64,000 nucleotides of DNA from contig JARIEV010000001.1 in assembly GCA_031127225.1 (NCBI GenBank), forward strand, positions 4,930 through 68,929, written 5' to 3'. The stretch is from Gemmatimonadota bacterium (lineage in GTDB: Bacteria; Gemmatimonadota; Gemmatimonadetes; Gemmatimonadales; Gemmatimonadaceae). Position 1 is the first letter of the stretch. Each line of letters begins with the position of its first letter. The position numbers were made by a program, and so were the translations under genes. The notes beneath the pieces are model-generated. The model searched no databases. It had not been told where the DNA came from and saw only the letters and a program-made list of their open reading frames with translations. Below, piece after piece: positions 48,791 through 54,240 of the stretch.

Positions 48791-50146
48791 ATGCCCAATC
48801 AACCTGCCTCCCTCACCCCACCGACCGCCCCGCCCGTGAAAAGTGGCTCGGGAGCCGTGGGCATGCTCATGGGATCCGTTGGAGGATTGGTCGTCGGACT
48901 CGGCCTCGGGATCGCCGGACACGAAACCGGATCGACTGTCCTCGCCGGCGTCGGCCCCTACATCAAAGCGTTCGGGGCAGGGTGGATGAATGCACTGACC
49001 GCTCTGGTGCTGCCGCTGATGGTCGCTAACATCGTCACGGCGGTCCTGCAGAGCCGGGACGCCCGCGCCACCGGCAAGATCAGTGCGTACGCGCTCGGAC
49101 TGTTCGTGGCGGCGCTACTCCTAGGGACGGCCTTCACGCTGGTGGTGGTCCCGCCGTTCATCTCCGTGCTCCCGCTCGATGCCAACGTGGCCGCCTCACT
49201 GTCGGCCACGCTCACCCCCGCAGCGCGCGCGGCGGCGGCGACGGCTCCCGTGCTGTCCACGCCCTCCGACATCGTGAGCGTGTTCATTCCGCGCAACGTG
49301 TTCAAGTCGGCGGTCAACGACGATCTGCTTCCCATCCTCATCTTCTCGATCGCCTTCGGCTTTGCCGTGAGCCATGTGCGCGGCGCGGGGCGCGACCTGC
49401 TCGCGGCGGTGTTCAGCGCCCTTGCCGAGGCGCTGCTCGTGCTGGTGAGCTGGATCCTGAAGCTCCTCCCCCTCGGCGCCTTCGCGCTGGCGTATTCGTT
49501 TTCCGCGGGAGCAGGAATGCAGGCGGCCGGCGTGCTGGCGCAGTTCACCCTGATCACCTGCGCCTCCATGCTCGCCTTCACCGCGTTGTTGTACCCGGTG
49601 TCGGCGCTCCTGGGCGGTGTCTCGCTGCGGCAGTTCGCGTTGGCCGTGCTGCCGGCGCAGATCTCCGCCGTGTCCACCCGCTCGTCGATCGCCTCGCTGC
49701 CGGCGTTGCTGCAGGGGGCGCAGACACACCTGCGCATGGACCCTGCCGTGGCCAACCTCGCCCTGCCGTTGTCGGTGGCCGTGTTCAAGGTCAATCGCAC
49801 GATCTCGTCCACGGTGAAGATGCTGTTCATCGCCCATCTCTTCGGCGTGCCAGTTGGGGCGGCGCAGATCGTCGTCTTCACCGCGACGATTGTGATGCTC
49901 AGTTTCACTTCACTGGGTGTGCCGGGCGGCGGCACCGCCTTCAAGTCGATGGCGGCCTATCTCGCCGTGGGATTACCCATCGAAGGCGTCATCCTGCTGG
50001 AGGCGGTCGATGTGATCGCCGACGTGTTCAAGACCCTGCTCAACGTGACCGGCGACATGTCAGTGGCCGTCATCCTCAACCGATTTACCGCCGCGGCGCC
50101 CGCATTCTCGCCTCGATCTCCCGCACTTCCCGCGGACCCGACGTGA
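48791..50146 (+). CDS. Dicarboxylate/amino acid:cation symporter (DAACS, GltP-like)
   Basis: IP.NVF, STRSSIASLP hairpin, GVPG, GLPIEG..L..VD...D.FKT..NVTGD. Confidence 0.88.
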   Translation: MPNQPASLTPPTAPPVKSGSGAVGMLMGSVGGLVVGLGLGIAGHETGSTVLAGVGPYIKAFGAGWMNALTALVLPLMVANIVTAVLQSRDARATGKISAYALGLFVAALLLGTAFTLVVVPPFISVLPLDANVAASLSATLTPAARAAAATAPVLSTPSDIVSVFIPRNVFKSAVNDDLLPILIFSIAFGFAVSHVRGAGRDLLAAVFSALAEALLVLVSWILKLLPLGAFALAYSFSAGAGMQAAGVLAQFTLITCASMLAFTALLYPVSALLGGVSLRQFALAVLPAQISAVSTRSSIASLPALLQGAQTHLRMDPAVANLALPLSVAVFKVNRTISSTVKMLFIAHLFGVPVGAAQIVVFTATIVMLSFTSLGVPGGGTAFKSMAAYLAVGLPIEGVILLEAVDVIADVFKTLLNVTGDMSVAVILNRFTAAAPAFSPRSPALPADPT

Positions 50147-50441
50147 GCCACGTGAGGCGTCCGTCGGCCGTAATCACGTAGTCGTCCTCGATGCGCACGC
50201 CGATATCGCGGTCGCACGCCACGGCAGCGGCGAGCCGCGACTGCCGGCACTGCCGCTGGCCGTCACGTGAACAGGCATATGTGGCGTCGGGTGATTCGAT
50301 CAGGCCGAGGCGGGCCAGGCGGCACATTCGCGTGCGCCGATGGCCGGCGGGGCGCTTGCTGGGCGCTTGCTGGGCGCTTGCTGGGCGCTGGCTGCGCGCC
50401 GCCACAGACGGTGACAGCAGGAGGGCGACGATGCCCGCCAT
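50085..50441 (-). pseudogene. Internally deleted Xaa-Pro aminopeptidase (M24B) remnant
   Basis: Signal-like N-terminus, LARLGLIESPDATY patch and C-terminal IGVRIEDDYVIT..G...L....PREV.EIE; the catalytic core is missing. Confidence 0.7.
50350..50393. repeat. 11-bp tandem repeat (GGGCGCTTGCT) x3-4
   Basis: Directly visible inside the aminopeptidase remnant. Confidence 0.75.
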
Positions 50442-50493: not shown

Positions 50494-51093
50494 TTACCGC
50501 AGCAGCGCGCTGCTGATGACGCTCTCCAGGAGCCCCAGCCCGAAGTAGGCGATGAGCACCGTGATGTCGATCATGCCGATGGTGGGCACCACCTGACGCA
50601 GCGGGGCGAGGAACCATTCGGTGAGCACGTACGACCAGCGCCACCACTTGGAGTACGGGCCGCCGCCCACCCAGCTCGCGATCACGCGGGCAAAGAGCGC
50701 GAGGCGCAGGACACTGAAGGTCCAGCGCACGAGCAGCGCCGCGAGCGAGGCGGTGGAGCCGCTCATGTAGGCCAGCATCGCCAGCTGATCGCGCAGGAAG
50801 CCGACGGCCGAGAGCAGCACGAGCCCGCCCACCACGACCGCCGCGAGCGCCCACCAGGGCGCGGCGTATGGCGTGCCGCCGGCGCGGAGGATGCGGCGCT
50901 CCATCGGGGCGATCAGCCACGGATCCACCCGGTCGCGGGTGAAGCGCGCGAGGGGGGAGAAGGGGGACATCCGCCGGGTGCGGGCGCTGTATGACACCAG
51001 CGCCGCCACGGCGGTAAGGGCACCGGCCGCAAACACCGCAGGGCGGAGCAGGGCGAGGAGCAGATCAAGGAGACCGACGGCAGATCCGAGCAT
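50494..51093 (-). CDS. YggT family membrane protein (two YGGT repeats)
   Basis: RVIASW......W..LTEWFLAPLRQVVPTIGMIDIT. Confidence 0.85.
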   Translation of the reverse strand: MLGSAVGLLDLLLALLRPAVFAAGALTAVAALVSYSARTRRMSPFSPLARFTRDRVDPWLIAPMERRILRAGGTPYAAPWWALAAVVVGGLVLLSAVGFLRDQLAMLAYMSGSTASLAALLVRWTFSVLRLALFARVIASWVGGGPYSKWWRWSYVLTEWFLAPLRQVVPTIGMIDITVLIAYFGLGLLESVISSALLR

Positions 51094-51277
51094 ACGAGAA
51101 AGATACTCTGGCGCCGGGGCTGGGGTTCAGGGGAGCGCCCCCTGCAGCGGGCGCGCGGCGTTTTCACCCCGGTCGCAACGCGGCGGTGGGGCGGTGGCCC
51201 GCCGACCCCGTATCGTGTGGTTCGAGCGGCTGGTTCGCCCTTGCGTGTGTGAAAACAACTGAAGAAAATAGGACTGA

Positions 51278-51349
51278 GTGCTATTCACCCGTTTCCCGCT
51301 GACCACCCGCACGGTGCGCCTCGAGGCATTCGACCCGTATGATGACTAG
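51278..51349 (+). pseudogene. Possible C-terminal stub of the toxin partner of the MqsA-like gene
   Basis: 23-aa ORF VLFTRFPLTTRTVRLEAFDPYDD overlapping the antitoxin start; only loosely resembles MqsR-type C-termini. Confidence 0.3.
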
Positions 51350-51854
51350 ACGCTCCCCAGACTTGCGGCCCGATGCTGTCGTCCTACGGTGCGCTGCCTG
51401 TGGAGACGGACAGTTTCAGGAGACCAACGTCGAAGGCCGTGCGTTTCCCTATCGCGACGAGCGCGCGCTGACGCTGACGCAGGCCCTGCTCCTCCCGGTG
51501 TGCACCGTCTGCGGGGAGGTGCGGGAATCGGCGCAACACGCCGCTTCGCTGGACCGCTTGCTCCACGCAGCATACGTCGCGCGTCGCGCGGCGCAGACGC
51601 ACGAATTGGTCGCGCAGTTAACGGCCGCCGGCTGGCGACAAGTGGACATCGAGCAGACGATGGCACTGTCCGCGGGCTACCTCAGCAAGGTGCTCAGAGG
51701 GGAAAAGCTCCTCGCGCCATCGACCTTCCGCCATCTGATCCATCTCGCGCTGCACCCCCGAGAGGCGCTCCGGGATCTCGCACCGTTCTTCCCACAGTCG
51801 CGTGACATTGAGTCGACGCTGGAGCGCCGCGGGGCGTTTGCCGCCTCGCGATGA
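51339..51854 (+). CDS. MqsA-like antitoxin (CxxC...CxxC zinc ribbon plus XRE HTH)
   Basis: CAAC...CTVCGE, then QVDIEQTMALSAGYLSKVLRGEK HTH. Confidence 0.75.
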   Translation: MMTRRSPDLRPDAVVLRCAACGDGQFQETNVEGRAFPYRDERALTLTQALLLPVCTVCGEVRESAQHAASLDRLLHAAYVARRAAQTHELVAQLTAAGWRQVDIEQTMALSAGYLSKVLRGEKLLAPSTFRHLIHLALHPREALRDLAPFFPQSRDIESTLERRGAFAASR

Positions 51855-51857
51855 GCG
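51811..51857 (+). repeat. 47-bp direct repeat, copy 1 (3' end of the MqsA-like gene)
   Basis: 46/47 identical to 52433-52479. Confidence 0.9.
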
Positions 51858-51923
51858 CACCGGCGTGCGAATGGTGTGCGGGTCTCTCGTCGGCCGACGT
51901 ATGCCGTCGGGTCTCGCGCCGAG

Positions 51924-51952
51924 TTGCCGGTTAATAGCAATATTGCTAACAT
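51924..51952 (+). promoter_or_regulatory. Sigma70-like promoter with a 14-bp palindromic operator
   Basis: TTGCCG-17bp-TAACAT; TAGCAATATTGCTA at 51935-51948 overlaps the spacer and -10. Confidence 0.7.
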
Positions 51953-51974
51953 GTGAGTGGGTGCAGCAGGCGAC

Positions 51975-52072
51975 ATGAGCGCCCGCCGGAAACGATCGGT
52001 TGAATTCGCCGCGAGCGCGTCGCGGCCCGATTCCTGTTGGCTGAGCAACATTACCGCGGACACCAGCGATGA
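51975..52072 (+). pseudogene. Internally deleted RelE/HigB (Gp49-like) toxin
   Basis: N-stub MSARRKRSVEFAASA joined out of frame to C-stub RVAARFLLAEQHYRGHQR*; its TGA overlaps the antitoxin ATG. Confidence 0.65.
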
Positions 52073-52434
52073 ACGGCAGCAAATCGAACAACGGCACAGG
52101 TGACGAAGAGACGATCGAGGCCGGCAGCGACAATGTCTTTGCCGATCTCCATCGACCGAACCCGCAGGAGCGGCTCTCGAAAGCCCTCCTCGCCCGGGCG
52201 ATCCAAGAGATCGTCAAGCGGCGTGCCTGGACGCAGGTGCGAGCCGCACGTCACGTCGGTTTGGCGGCGTCGGACATGAGCGATGTCATGCGCGGAAAGC
52301 TCGCGCGATTCAGTCTCGATCGACTGGAGTCCGTTCTGCTCGACCTGCAGATGGACGTGCACATCATCATCCGACCCGTGTCGGCTGAGGGGCGACGTGG
52401 GACAGTCACGGTGGAACTCCTCGGCGCCGATTAG
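52069..52434 (+). CDS. XRE/HTH_37 antitoxin (HigA2-like)
   Basis: GSDNVFADL, WTQ..AA..G....DMS...RGKL.RFSLDRL, MDVHIIIRP. Confidence 0.85.
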   Translation: MNGSKSNNGTGDEETIEAGSDNVFADLHRPNPQERLSKALLARAIQEIVKRRAWTQVRAARHVGLAASDMSDVMRGKLARFSLDRLESVLLDLQMDVHIIIRPVSAEGRRGTVTVELLGAD

Positions 52435-52479
52435 TCGGCGCTGGAGCGCCGCGGGGCGTTTGCCGCCTCGCGATGAGCG
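52433..52479 (+). repeat. 47-bp direct repeat, copy 2
   Basis: 46/47 identical to 51811-51857. Confidence 0.9.
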
Positions 52480-52551
52480 TAATCGGTTTTGTCCCCTACT
52501 CGAAGAGCGACACGGTAAGGGCGGGCAGCAGCAGTCCAGCCGCCCTTTGAT

Positions 52552-52580
52552 TTGACAAGCGACACGTGTCACTTTACATA
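52552..52580 (+). promoter_or_regulatory. Sigma70-like promoter with a palindromic operator upstream of higA
   Basis: TTGACA-17bp-TACATA with GACACGTGTC (52561-52570) in the spacer. Confidence 0.75.
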
Positions 52581-52594
52581 CATGTTGAGCCCCA

Positions 52595-52642
52595 ACGACT
52601 CAGAACTTTCGACGCCAAGGGCTTGAGCTGCTGTTCTACCAA
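52595..52642 (+). pseudogene. HigB toxin remnant
   Basis: TTQNFRRQGLELLFY resembles the HigB N-terminus (MI.SF.HKGL..FF) with the start degraded to ACG; the rest is absent. Confidence 0.55.
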
Positions 52643-52654
52643 CCGGAGCCTCCC

Positions 52655-52963
52655 ATGGCGATGAAGAACCCCGCGCATCCCGGCCGTGTGGTGCGCGCCA
52701 TGTGCCTGGACCCGAACGGTCTCAGTGTGACGGAAGCGGCCGCCGGACTCGGCGTGTCCCGGCAGGCCCTGAATAACGTGGTCAACGGGAAGGCGGCCAT
52801 GAGCCCCGAGATGGCGGTCCGCCTTGAGAAGCGCTTCGGCGGAAGCGCCGAGATGTGGCTCTCGCTCCAACTGGCATTCGACTTGGCGGCAGCGTACAAG
52901 AAAGCGGGCGCGATTCGCGTCGAGCCGTTCAAGGCGGGCGCTCACGTATCATCGGCGGCGTAG
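52655..52963 (+). CDS. higA: HigA family addiction-module antitoxin
   Basis: MKNPAHPG, LSVTEAA..LGVSRQAL...VNGK...SPEMAVRL...FGGSAE.WL.LQ..FDL; GGAG RBS. Confidence 0.92.
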   Translation: MAMKNPAHPGRVVRAMCLDPNGLSVTEAAAGLGVSRQALNNVVNGKAAMSPEMAVRLEKRFGGSAEMWLSLQLAFDLAAAYKKAGAIRVEPFKAGAHVSSAA

Positions 52964-54240
52964 CCGCGCCGCGCCCTCCGCCCCGCCACGTGCCCCAGCG
53001 CCGCCCCGGCCGCCAGGCACGCCGCCATCAGCGCCCAGTCCCGCGCGCTTACCGGGGCCACCCCAAACACCCGCGGCATCGCCGCCGCCCCCGCCCAGAG
53101 CCACACCACGGCCACGCCCAGCACGCGCCACCGCCGCGGGGATGCCTGTATTCCCCACCATCCTACCGGCATCATCAGCGCAGTAAGCCAGCAGATATGC
53201 GCCAATAGTTCAAAAGCGCCCCCGAGGTCGAACACGGTCTGGATCAGCGCCCACCCAATCACCGGCGTCAGCGCCAGCGTGCGGCTTTCCTGAAACTCGG
53301 CCCACGTGGCCGTCAGCCGCAGCGTATCGGGGGCGCTCCACGCCTCCAGCACCAACGGCCGCGGGTCGTCCACCGACCGGCCGGCGAACACGCCCTCGAC
53401 GCGCAGCGTTGGCATGGCCAGCCCCCAATCCCACGCGCGCCGCGTGACGTCGAGCGTCGCGGCGAGATCGTTTTCGGCCACCATCGCCACCGGCGACTCG
53501 TCGCCGATCACGTGCAGGAACACCGCCGGCACCTCGAACGGCTCCCGGTCCCGACCGCGCAGTACGGTCCGCAGCGCCACCGTGGCCGGCTCGCGCGAGA
53601 CCTGTACGATCACCGGACCGGTGCCGCGATGGGTGGTGCCGAACCCGTTCACCGACACGGAGTCGATCAGCCCGCCGTACCACGCCATCCTCGGCACATG
53701 GGTCAGCGCACTGGTGGCGTAGCGTGCCGAAGTGGCCCCGTCGTTCCGCGCCGCGCGGGCGACTCCCGACCGCGGGCCCAGCGCCGCACTGGTGAGCGCG
53801 AACAGCGCGACCACCCCCGCCGCCCATCCCCACGCCAAGCGTGTGGCTACCCGCCACGACGCCGGCCGCAGCCACCCGCGCCGCGCGACCAGCCACGCGC
53901 CGGCCACTCCGCCCAGCGTGTTCGCCACCACATCGGCCCACGCCGGGGAACGCGCCGGCGGCACGCCGACGGATTGCAGGAACTCCACCCCCAACGAGTA
54001 CGCGGCGGAGCAGAGGAGTACCGCCCACCACCGCACCCCCAGCATCGCGAGCGCGACGCCAAAGGGTGCGAACAGCACCACGTTGCTGATGCCGTCGGTG
54101 AGCCACAGACCACCGCACGCCAGACACCAGCGCCCGGGCATGCGGTGCGCCGCAATCGCGTTGAAGGGCGCCAGGGTCGCGACCGCAACGAGCCCCACGC
54201 CCGCCACGAGTAGGGCCCACCACACCCAAGTTTTACTCAT
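52942..54240 (-). CDS. VanZ-like membrane protein with a large extracytoplasmic domain
   Basis: D.ISNVVLFAPFG, VEFLQ, R....DVVANTLG. Confidence 0.75.
   Translation of the reverse strand: MSKTWVWWALLVAGVGLVAVATLAPFNAIAAHRMPGRWCLACGGLWLTDGISNVVLFAPFGVALAMLGVRWWAVLLCSAAYSLGVEFLQSVGVPPARSPAWADVVANTLGGVAGAWLVARRGWLRPASWRVATRLAWGWAAGVVALFALTSAALGPRSGVARAARNDGATSARYATSALTHVPRMAWYGGLIDSVSVNGFGTTHRGTGPVIVQVSREPATVALRTVLRGRDREPFEVPAVFLHVIGDESPVAMVAENDLAATLDVTRRAWDWGLAMPTLRVEGVFAGRSVDDPRPLVLEAWSAPDTLRLTATWAEFQESRTLALTPVIGWALIQTVFDLGGAFELLAHICWLTALMMPVGWWGIQASPRRWRVLGVAVVWLWAGAAAMPRVFGVAPVSARDWALMAACLAAGAALGHVAGRRARRGYAADDT

Follow-up and report, generated by a model that had tools for sequence, protein, structure and literature searches.

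In a 64-kb stretch of contig JARIEV010000001.1 from a Gemmatimonadota bacterium (henceforth the window), three antitoxin genes of type II toxin-antitoxin systems stand in tandem between a yggT-family gene and a vanZ-like gene. Each antitoxin gene is intact, and of each toxin gene only a short remnant is detectable. We interpret this small island as an intermediate of erosion, in which three toxin-first operons were inactivated by three independent detoxifying deletions, rather than as an island built to carry antitoxins. We put the probability of this interpretation at about 0.62. The features on which it rests are listed in Table 1.

Table 1. Features of the antitoxin island and its flanking genes (positions are those of the window; aa, amino acids; nt, nucleotides)
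Feature	Position	Strand	Remarks
yggT-family gene	50494-51093	minus	PF02325
Module 1 promoter/operator (putative)	51241-51285	+	conserved with respect to L013, L014 and L015
MqsR-like toxin remnant, last 21 codons and stop	51284-51349	+	overlaps the ORF1 start by 11 nt
ORF1, MqsA-like antitoxin, 171 aa	51339-51854	+	N-terminal four-cysteine zinc ribbon, long helix, C-terminal helix-turn-helix
47-nt direct repeat, copy A	51811-51857	+	native ORF1 3' end plus 3 nt
Module 2 putative promoter, TTGCCG-17-TAACAT	51924-51952	+	read from sequence; function predicted
Gp49-type RelE/ParE toxin remnant, C-terminal ~17-20 codons	52013-52072	+	tblastn and hidden Markov model
ORF2, HTH_37 (XRE-type) antitoxin, 121 aa	52069-52434	+	Pfam PF13744
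47-nt direct repeat, copy B	52433-52479	+	displaced ORF1 3' end; starts inside the ORF2 stop codon
Module 3 putative promoter, perfect TTGACA (52552-52557), weak -10	52552-52580	+	read from sequence; function predicted
HigB toxin remnant, first ~14-16 codons	52595-52642	+	start codon lost; in frame into ORF3
ORF3, HigA antitoxin, 102 aa	52655-52963	+	TIGR02607
vanZ-like gene, convergent to ORF3	52942-54240	minus	PF04892

An earlier reading of the DNA letters (the sequence-only reading) had described three co-oriented, intact open reading frames (ORFs) of different antitoxin families, and our analysis confirmed all three at the positions given in Table 1. Two of them were assigned by sequence models. 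ORF3 matched the HigA model TIGR02607 with 93.1 bits (cutoff 47.7; positions 1-80 of 81) and HTH_3 with 39.5 bits, and 688 plasmid records matched it. ORF2 matched the HTH_37 model PF13744 over its full length (65.2 bits, cutoff 27, positions 1-80 of 80). We found 15 homologs of ORF2, of which P0017 is 98% identical over the full length, and those with 100% coverage are likewise 121 aa long.

ORF1 fell below the cutoff of every sequence-family model tried. It scored 21.1 bits against the MqsA model TIGR03830 (cutoff 61.8) and did not match the Pfam model MqsA_antitoxin (PF15731), for which the homolog in locus L014 reached 13.9 bits against a cutoff of 30; the Pfam model HTH_31 appeared only at E 0.051. 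The search for relatives returned nine homologs, and the closest that could be retrieved come from metagenome-assembled genomes (MAGs) of the Gemmatimonadaceae; P0001 is 95% identical over the full length. A tblastn search of plasmids gave no match. Within the family, the second CxxC pair of the zinc ribbon (C55, C58) is invariant and the first (C18, C21) is present in 9 of the 10 sequences, the tenth being truncated at its N terminus. A C-terminal motif is conserved as well. We modelled ORF1 with AlphaFold2 from a 10-sequence alignment (predicted local distance difference test score, pLDDT, 86.9) and compared the model with the PDB, where E. coli MqsA provided the sole matches at E ≤ 0.001 (3gn5, E 6.5e-5). 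The N-terminal domain superposed on 3ga8 (TMt 0.68, root-mean-square deviation (rmsd) 3.2 over 67 columns), and the C-terminal domain fitted 3fmy (TMt 0.68, rmsd 2.3) along with many XRE and C-protein structures. Profile and single-sequence searches of PDB sequences recovered neither MqsA nor MqsR, and the fold search alone recovered both. The earlier label of a zinc ribbon-helix-turn-helix protein of the MqsA type thus holds by architecture and predicted fold but not by sequence models, and ORF1 lies outside the curated MqsA family.

No full-length toxin ORF accompanies these antitoxins, as had also been read from the letters. A tblastn search of the whole window with 10 toxins of the three families returned one remnant match and weak scattered ones, and the gaps upstream of ORF1, ORF2 and ORF3 (245, 214 and 220 nt) are too short for a toxin of 90-130 aa. 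No module therefore combines an intact toxin with an intact antitoxin, as a functional type II system would. The whole Gp49-type toxin expected directly upstream of ORF2 is absent and its C-terminal ~17-20 codons remain, and in place of a whole HigB upstream of ORF3 there are codons ~1-16 without the start codon.

Detecting the remnants required permissive searches. Pfam returned nothing for the 13 stop-to-stop peptides from the three gaps, even at E ≤ 10. Since the HMMER filters drop such short matches, we built our own hidden Markov models (HMMs) and ran them unfiltered against the six-frame peptides of 51094-52654. The toxin sources were six HigB proteins (L001-L003, L006, L022, L023), nine Gp49-type RelE/ParE proteins (L008-L012, L025-L028) and an alignment of MqsR-like toxins; the first models were made from four HigB, five Gp49-type toxins and the MqsR-like alignment. 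For every toxin model, the best six-frame match fell on the plus strand, in the peptide immediately preceding the cognate antitoxin, and was collinear with an end of the toxin. We then assessed these scores with 1000 approximately dinucleotide-preserving shuffles per gap. The real score was reached in none of the 1000 for the MqsR-like model, in none of the 1000 for Gp49 and in 4 of 1000 for HigB.

The individual matches agree in place and frame. In module 1, residues 111-128 of the intact MqsR-like toxin of locus L015 aligned to 51284-51337 with 10 of 18 residues identical (tblastn over the whole window, E 0.023), and positions 111-129 of the 131-position HMM matched 51284-51346 (independent E-value, iE, 0.0011). 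The module 2 remnant was matched in tblastn by the plasmid toxins of L009 (8 of 15 residues identical) and L010, and at 52013-52063 by both Gp49-type models (positions 98-114 of 120 with five toxins, 102-118 of 124 with nine). Its TGA stop (52070-52072) overlaps the ATG of ORF2 (52069-52071) in an ATGA, and toxin and antitoxin likewise overlap by 4 nt in the coordinates of four intact plasmid pairs (L008, L009, L011, L026). In module 3, tblastn aligned the HigB toxins of L002 and L003 (residues 3-14) to 52601-52636, and the HMM match at 52601-52642 covered positions 3-15 in the first model and 3-16 of 92 in the six-toxin model. Of the three, the HigB remnant is the weakest, with an iE of 1.4 in the first search.

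The sequence-only reading had proposed toxin-like stubs in modules 2 and 3. The stub of module 3 was recovered as an N-terminal HigB remnant, and a stub is present in module 2 too, as a C-terminal piece at 52013-52063. What did not survive is the N-terminal likeness to Gp49-type toxins of a 48-aa ORF (51957-52103), probably the stub meant for module 2; this likeness is at chance level, with 494 of 1000 shuffles scoring as well. Module 1, which it took as bare, keeps both a toxin remnant and a conserved promoter/operator region. One further candidate was rejected: HigB residues 36-73 gave a tblastn match at 51317-51430 (E 3e-4, against a 2-kb database and without composition correction), but the match lies in another frame over the conserved part of ORF1 that encodes the zinc ribbon and is absent with HMMs.

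Ahead of the toxin remnant of module 1 there is a -35-like TTGCGT (51241-51246), a 17-nt spacer and a -10-like GAAAAT (51264-51269), followed by an imperfect palindrome (51267-51285). This 45-nt stretch, 51241-51285, has a homologous counterpart in L013, L014 and L015, where it precedes the MqsR-like gene or what is left of it. Invariant in all four sequences are the TTGC of the -35 and the block AATAGGACT..GT.C.ATT, and the sequences also have the 17-nt spacer and the palindromic block in common; at the -10 position L015 has TATAAT and the window GAAAAT. In module 2, the putative promoter encloses a perfect 14-bp palindrome, TAGCAATATTGCTA, at 51935-51948, and in module 3 there is a 10-bp palindrome, GACACGTGTC, at 52561-52570. 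Both palindromes were confirmed by script. Palindromes with five-base arms are common in the window (518 counted), and GACACGTGTC is unremarkable by itself. A scan of 50900-53100 for strict consensus promoters, which does not cover the promoters of this phylum, found 0 sites. Of the sigma70-like promoters read earlier in modules 2 and 3, the hexamers and palindromes are thus present, but the -10 of module 3 is poor and neither promoter appears in the consensus scan. To judge from these upstream signals, modules 1-3 are probably still expressed.

The toxin missing from module 1 was identified through relatives of the locus. We scanned genome contigs with the ORF1 alignment and obtained four loci, three of them real (L013, L014 and L015). 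The ORF1 homolog of L015, a locus of a related MAG, is preceded at a distance of 4 nt by an intact 131-aa gene. Its product had no match in Pfam or among PDB sequences. Modelling from a 6-sequence alignment gave a best model with a pLDDT of 80.8, the only confident one (the other four ranged from 70.9 to 46.4), and its sole PDB match at E ≤ 0.001 was E. coli MqsR (3hi2_D, E 6.2e-4, TMt 0.74). Among 1.84 billion representatives, a profile search yielded 163 relatives of this toxin at E ≤ 0.001. We scanned 147 sequences, made up of the L015 toxin and 146 of the 150 relatives listed, and the Pfam model MqsR_toxin (PF15723) matched 66 of them. Because the L015 toxin has the MqsR fold and 66 of the 147 sequences match MqsR_toxin, the ORF1 family and the L015-type toxin are a divergent MqsRA-like pair. 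In L015 the MqsA-like gene directly follows an MqsR-type toxin, whereas the window keeps only the 21-codon remnant in that place.

Over 3.77 kb, loci L013 and L014 share 95.4% identity, and we counted them as one lineage. In both, ~27 codons from the N-terminal end of the MqsR-like toxin survive as a fusion to the antitoxin (tblastn E 1.5e-4 and 3e-4). The window keeps the C-terminal end of this toxin and L013 and L014 the N-terminal end; the MqsR-like toxin has therefore been lost at least two times with antitoxin and control region kept. Two relatives of the L015 toxin are also irregular: P0014 (98 aa) is without the stretch that matches residues ~90-122 of the MqsR-like toxin, and the N-terminal part of P0013 (121 aa) is unrelated. 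Both may represent additional toxin copies that have been damaged. We also note a match of 21 residues (81% identity) to the helix-turn-helix part of ORF1 in a Verrucomicrobiae MAG (L016:6001-6060), which is probably just an XRE helix-turn-helix.

The sequence-only reading assumed that all three antitoxin families normally sit downstream of a toxin. This is true of HTH_37, with an annotated toxin upstream in 9 of 10 plasmid loci examined, and of the MqsA-like gene in L015, but for HigA only 6 of 14 plasmid loci have an annotated toxin upstream (14 were examined of the 688 matching plasmid records, and the plasmid tables omit pseudogenes). None of the eight toxin-less HigA loci (8 of 8) has a HigB remnant, and in six of the eight the HigA gene is followed by methyltransferase, restriction, helicase or DUF499 genes. 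The HigA homologs of L004, L017, L018, L020, L021 and L024 are 51-54% identical to ORF3, have neither a HigB gene nor a HigB remnant and stand directly upstream of genes for a DNA methyltransferase, type I restriction, a helicase or DUF499, with overlaps of 4 nt in some cases. These homologs have the look of regulators that control restriction or defence operons. In L005 (372-1106; a plasmid of Burkholderia sp. PAMC 26561), a 244-aa ORF annotated as HigA resembles ORF3 in its C-terminal third only, and no HigB likeness was found in its N-terminal two thirds.

Such solo genes raise the alternative that the three antitoxins of the window are stand-alone XRE-type regulators that never had a toxin partner at this locus, with the likeness upstream of them due to chance. 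The 8 of 14 plasmid loci with a solo HigA and no HigB remnant, several of them beside DNA methyltransferase or restriction genes, speak in its favour, as does the weakness of the HigB remnant (iE 1.4). Yet three remnants in the right place, strand and register would have to be coincidental, together with the ATGA stop/start overlap of module 2, as in intact pairs, and a module 1 control region homologous to that of an intact toxin gene. We consider this alternative very improbable; for modules 1 and 2 it is largely refuted. Toxin-less HigA homologs are common on plasmids but differ in kind from the eroded modules of the window. A plasmid counterpart of erosion is found instead in L007 (617-840; Skermanella mucosa plasmid pSM-3), where a fragmented Gp49 toxin precedes an intact HTH_37 gene (iE 1.7e-14). 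Its three pieces, in different frames, cover model positions 44-63, 66-77 and 85-120, and the locus is another case of erosion in a toxin-first operon.

Module 2 is bracketed by a 47-nt direct repeat that the sequence-only reading overlooked. The two copies are identical at 46 of 47 positions and share an exact 40-nt core, for which two matches occurred in none of 100 shuffles. Copy A encodes the C-terminal motif conserved in the ORF1 family. This arrangement suggests that module 2 is a 575-nt insert with a 47-nt target duplication, or what remains of a larger duplication after a deletion; the repeat is not an integron-like site. Misassembly at this repeat, or the collapse of strain variants, could in principle have removed the toxins or misplaced module 2, and the closest relative of ORF1 happens to lie on a 661-nt contig. 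We nevertheless give hardly any credence to an assembly artefact: three clean, separate deletions with retained ends are unlike a collapse, the repeat copies differ at one base, and the independent MAG assemblies of L013 and L014 show the same kind of toxin deletion.

Under the erosion interpretation, a small island acquired horizontally would have brought in three toxin-first type II operons, one MqsRA-like, one of a Gp49-type RelE/ParE toxin with HTH_37 and one HigBA. An internal deletion of ~230-330 bp in each operon would then have removed the body of the toxin gene and spared the 5' control region, a short piece of the toxin gene and the complete antitoxin gene. We infer this order of events from the present anatomy. 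With a stable toxin and a labile antitoxin, losing the whole operon or its promoter would be lethal, and a deletion that kills the toxin would be survivable as long as antitoxin is made. Because the toxin comes first in the operon, the tolerated deletions fall between the promoter and the antitoxin start, as seen three times here. The leftover antitoxins are predicted to be helix-turn-helix autorepressors that probably still bind their own palindromes and are expressed at a low level, presumably without having acquired a new task. The state of the remnants fits recent deletion. Their identities to the toxins of relatives (10/18, 8/15 and 5/12 for modules 1, 2 and 3) are about on a par with those of the antitoxins to the same relatives (55%, 40.6% and 55.7%), and these small numbers give no sign of long differential decay.

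Several observations weigh against erosion and are also what one would expect if the antitoxins had been kept by selection, for anti-addiction or immunity against plasmids, phages and integrative elements or as regulators. None of the three antitoxin frames is broken, ORF2 and ORF3 match their models over the full length, and the upstream signals are intact too. All 52 invariant columns of the ORF1 family are kept in ORF1, which is itself part of that alignment. Near-identical full-length relatives exist for ORF1 (P0001, 95%) and ORF2 (P0017, 98%). All three modules (3/3) are in the same state with their upstream signals retained, as selection would also predict, and the MqsR-like toxin was deleted at least two times independently while the antitoxin was kept. 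A further observation concerns the toxin-less MqsA-like gene of L013 and L014 (L013:1026-1529, L014:3981-4484). Between these two loci its synonymous divergence (pS) is 0.024 (3/126 sites) and its nonsynonymous divergence (pN) 0.0027, against pS of 0.12-0.18 and pN of 0.011-0.021 for four flanking genes. The gene is thus 5-7 times less diverged than its flanks, which plain neutral decay does not predict.

This low divergence extends, however, to synonymous sites. In a 468-nt core of the MqsA-like gene, L013 and L014 have a single difference and 0 synonymous ones, whereas the stretch just upstream, including the remnant, has 19 mismatches in ~206 nt. Because synonymous sites are also nearly invariant, the pattern looks more like a recent recombination tract than like constraint on the protein; it could also reflect constraint at the nucleotide level or a MAG artefact. 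The openness of the frames is weak evidence either way at ~65% G+C. The sequence-only reading had preferred a selected antitoxin-only island and had named decay after detoxifying deletions as its alternative. Its description of three families with toxins removed, signals kept and remnants in place, strand and register stands. Its preference is less well supported: the remnants are no more decayed than the antitoxins and addiction alone predicts the same anatomy, and decay is the better supported of its two readings. Selective retention is nonetheless an established idea for orphan antitoxins in general, as set out in passages of PMC7354431 and PMC7192599, and we regard it as a possible but rather unlikely account of this island. 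More specifically, detoxified alleles might be favoured, spread by recombination and be kept for disarming the toxins of incoming plasmids, phages or defence islands, with the low divergence of L013 and L014 as the trace of a gene-specific sweep. We hold a maintained immunity island of this kind to be decidedly unlikely.

Base composition and the gene contexts of relatives are in line with an island of acquired DNA. The window is G+C-rich. Across 51200-52800 the G+C content drops to 0.60-0.69 (200-nt windows), and the flanking genes have 0.70-0.78 in most 200-nt windows, with one at 0.645. The lowered G+C of the island fits acquired DNA. The ORF1 homologs of L013, L014 and L015 occupy unrelated gene contexts. 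The 13 larger neighbouring ORFs that we scanned (43.3-63.7 kb) encode metabolic or membrane proteins, including a dicarboxylate symporter, a fasciclin protein, an acyl-CoA dehydrogenase, an amidohydrolase, a PQQ dehydrogenase and a Kelch protein, and none of these 13 is an integrase or transposase. No Pfam family was assigned to six minus-strand or alternative-frame ORFs of the island, a search against Rfam (E ≤ 1) gave a single sub-threshold miRNA match, a PADLOC scan returned nothing of note, and blastn of the island DNA against plasmids gave no match. At the right end, the last 22 nt of ORF3 (52942-52963) are shared with the 3' end of the vanZ-like gene, which is convergent to it, and the last ~6-10 residues of ORF3 lie outside most plasmid alignments, which end at 87-96, while two reach 100-102. 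The edge of the island may fall inside these last residues. Between the symporter gene and yggT there is a 118-aa ORF (50085-50441, minus strand; G+C 0.73-0.75) without a Pfam family at E ≤ 0.01, which may be a gene fragment.

We compared the island with known systems. Like eroded chromosomal type II loci and orphan antitoxins, it has antitoxins without a working toxin, forms a small island of toxin-antitoxin material only, holds toxin remnants that only permissive translated searches detect, and admits the same two readings, degraded remnant or anti-addiction. Unlike them, it has three unrelated modules side by side in the same state of erosion, produced by large internal deletions rather than point mutations, in a Gemmatimonadaceae-like host. 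E. coli MqsR/MqsA (3gn5, 3hi2) shares the toxin-first order, an antitoxin with zinc ribbon and helix-turn-helix, and the MqsR fold predicted for the L015 toxin, but identity is only 15-19%, ORF1 has 171 aa compared with 131-132 residues in the MqsA chains, and the toxin of the window amounts to 21 codons. The plasmid HigB/HigA and Gp49/HTH_37 pairs (L001-L003, L006, L008-L012, L022, L023, L025-L028) have the same antitoxin families, gene order and ATGA-type coupling, with antitoxins 34-58% identical to those of the window; their toxins are whole (89-138 aa), whereas the window has 14-20 codons of each. Toxin-antitoxin cassette arrays of integrons and superintegrons are likewise short, co-oriented and tandem, and one module here is bracketed by a direct repeat. 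The likeness ends there, because the repeat has two copies only, corresponds to the 3' end of the neighbouring gene and is not attC-like, and there is no integrase among the 13 neighbouring ORFs.

The loss of a toxin with retention of its antitoxin is a known route of operon erosion, and publications exist on orphan antitoxins, on eroded chromosomal loci and on the anti-addiction idea. Passages of a Klebsiella study count 2253 orphan antitoxins in 259 genomes, with many degraded pairs (PMC7192599), and such antitoxins are discussed there and in parts of PMC7354431 as degraded pairs or in the role of anti-addiction modules, in which an antitoxin encoded by the chromosome neutralises a toxin that an incoming element carries (PMC7354431). 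For Photorhabdus, sections of PMC13617665 describe erosion with chromosomal toxin-antitoxin remnants and pseudogenes and with tiny islands of such systems only. Decay by deletion and inactive toxin mutants are treated in parts of a review that cites the decay of ccdO157 (PMC7167474). Against this background, the island would show cleanly, in a natural setting, how toxin-first operons decay under the influence of addiction, adding an instance and not a principle. A further outcome is the definition, in Gemmatimonadaceae, of a divergent MqsRA-like pair that escapes current family models. If the antitoxins should prove to be under selection, the locus would lend itself well to testing the long-discussed anti-addiction role of orphan antitoxins.

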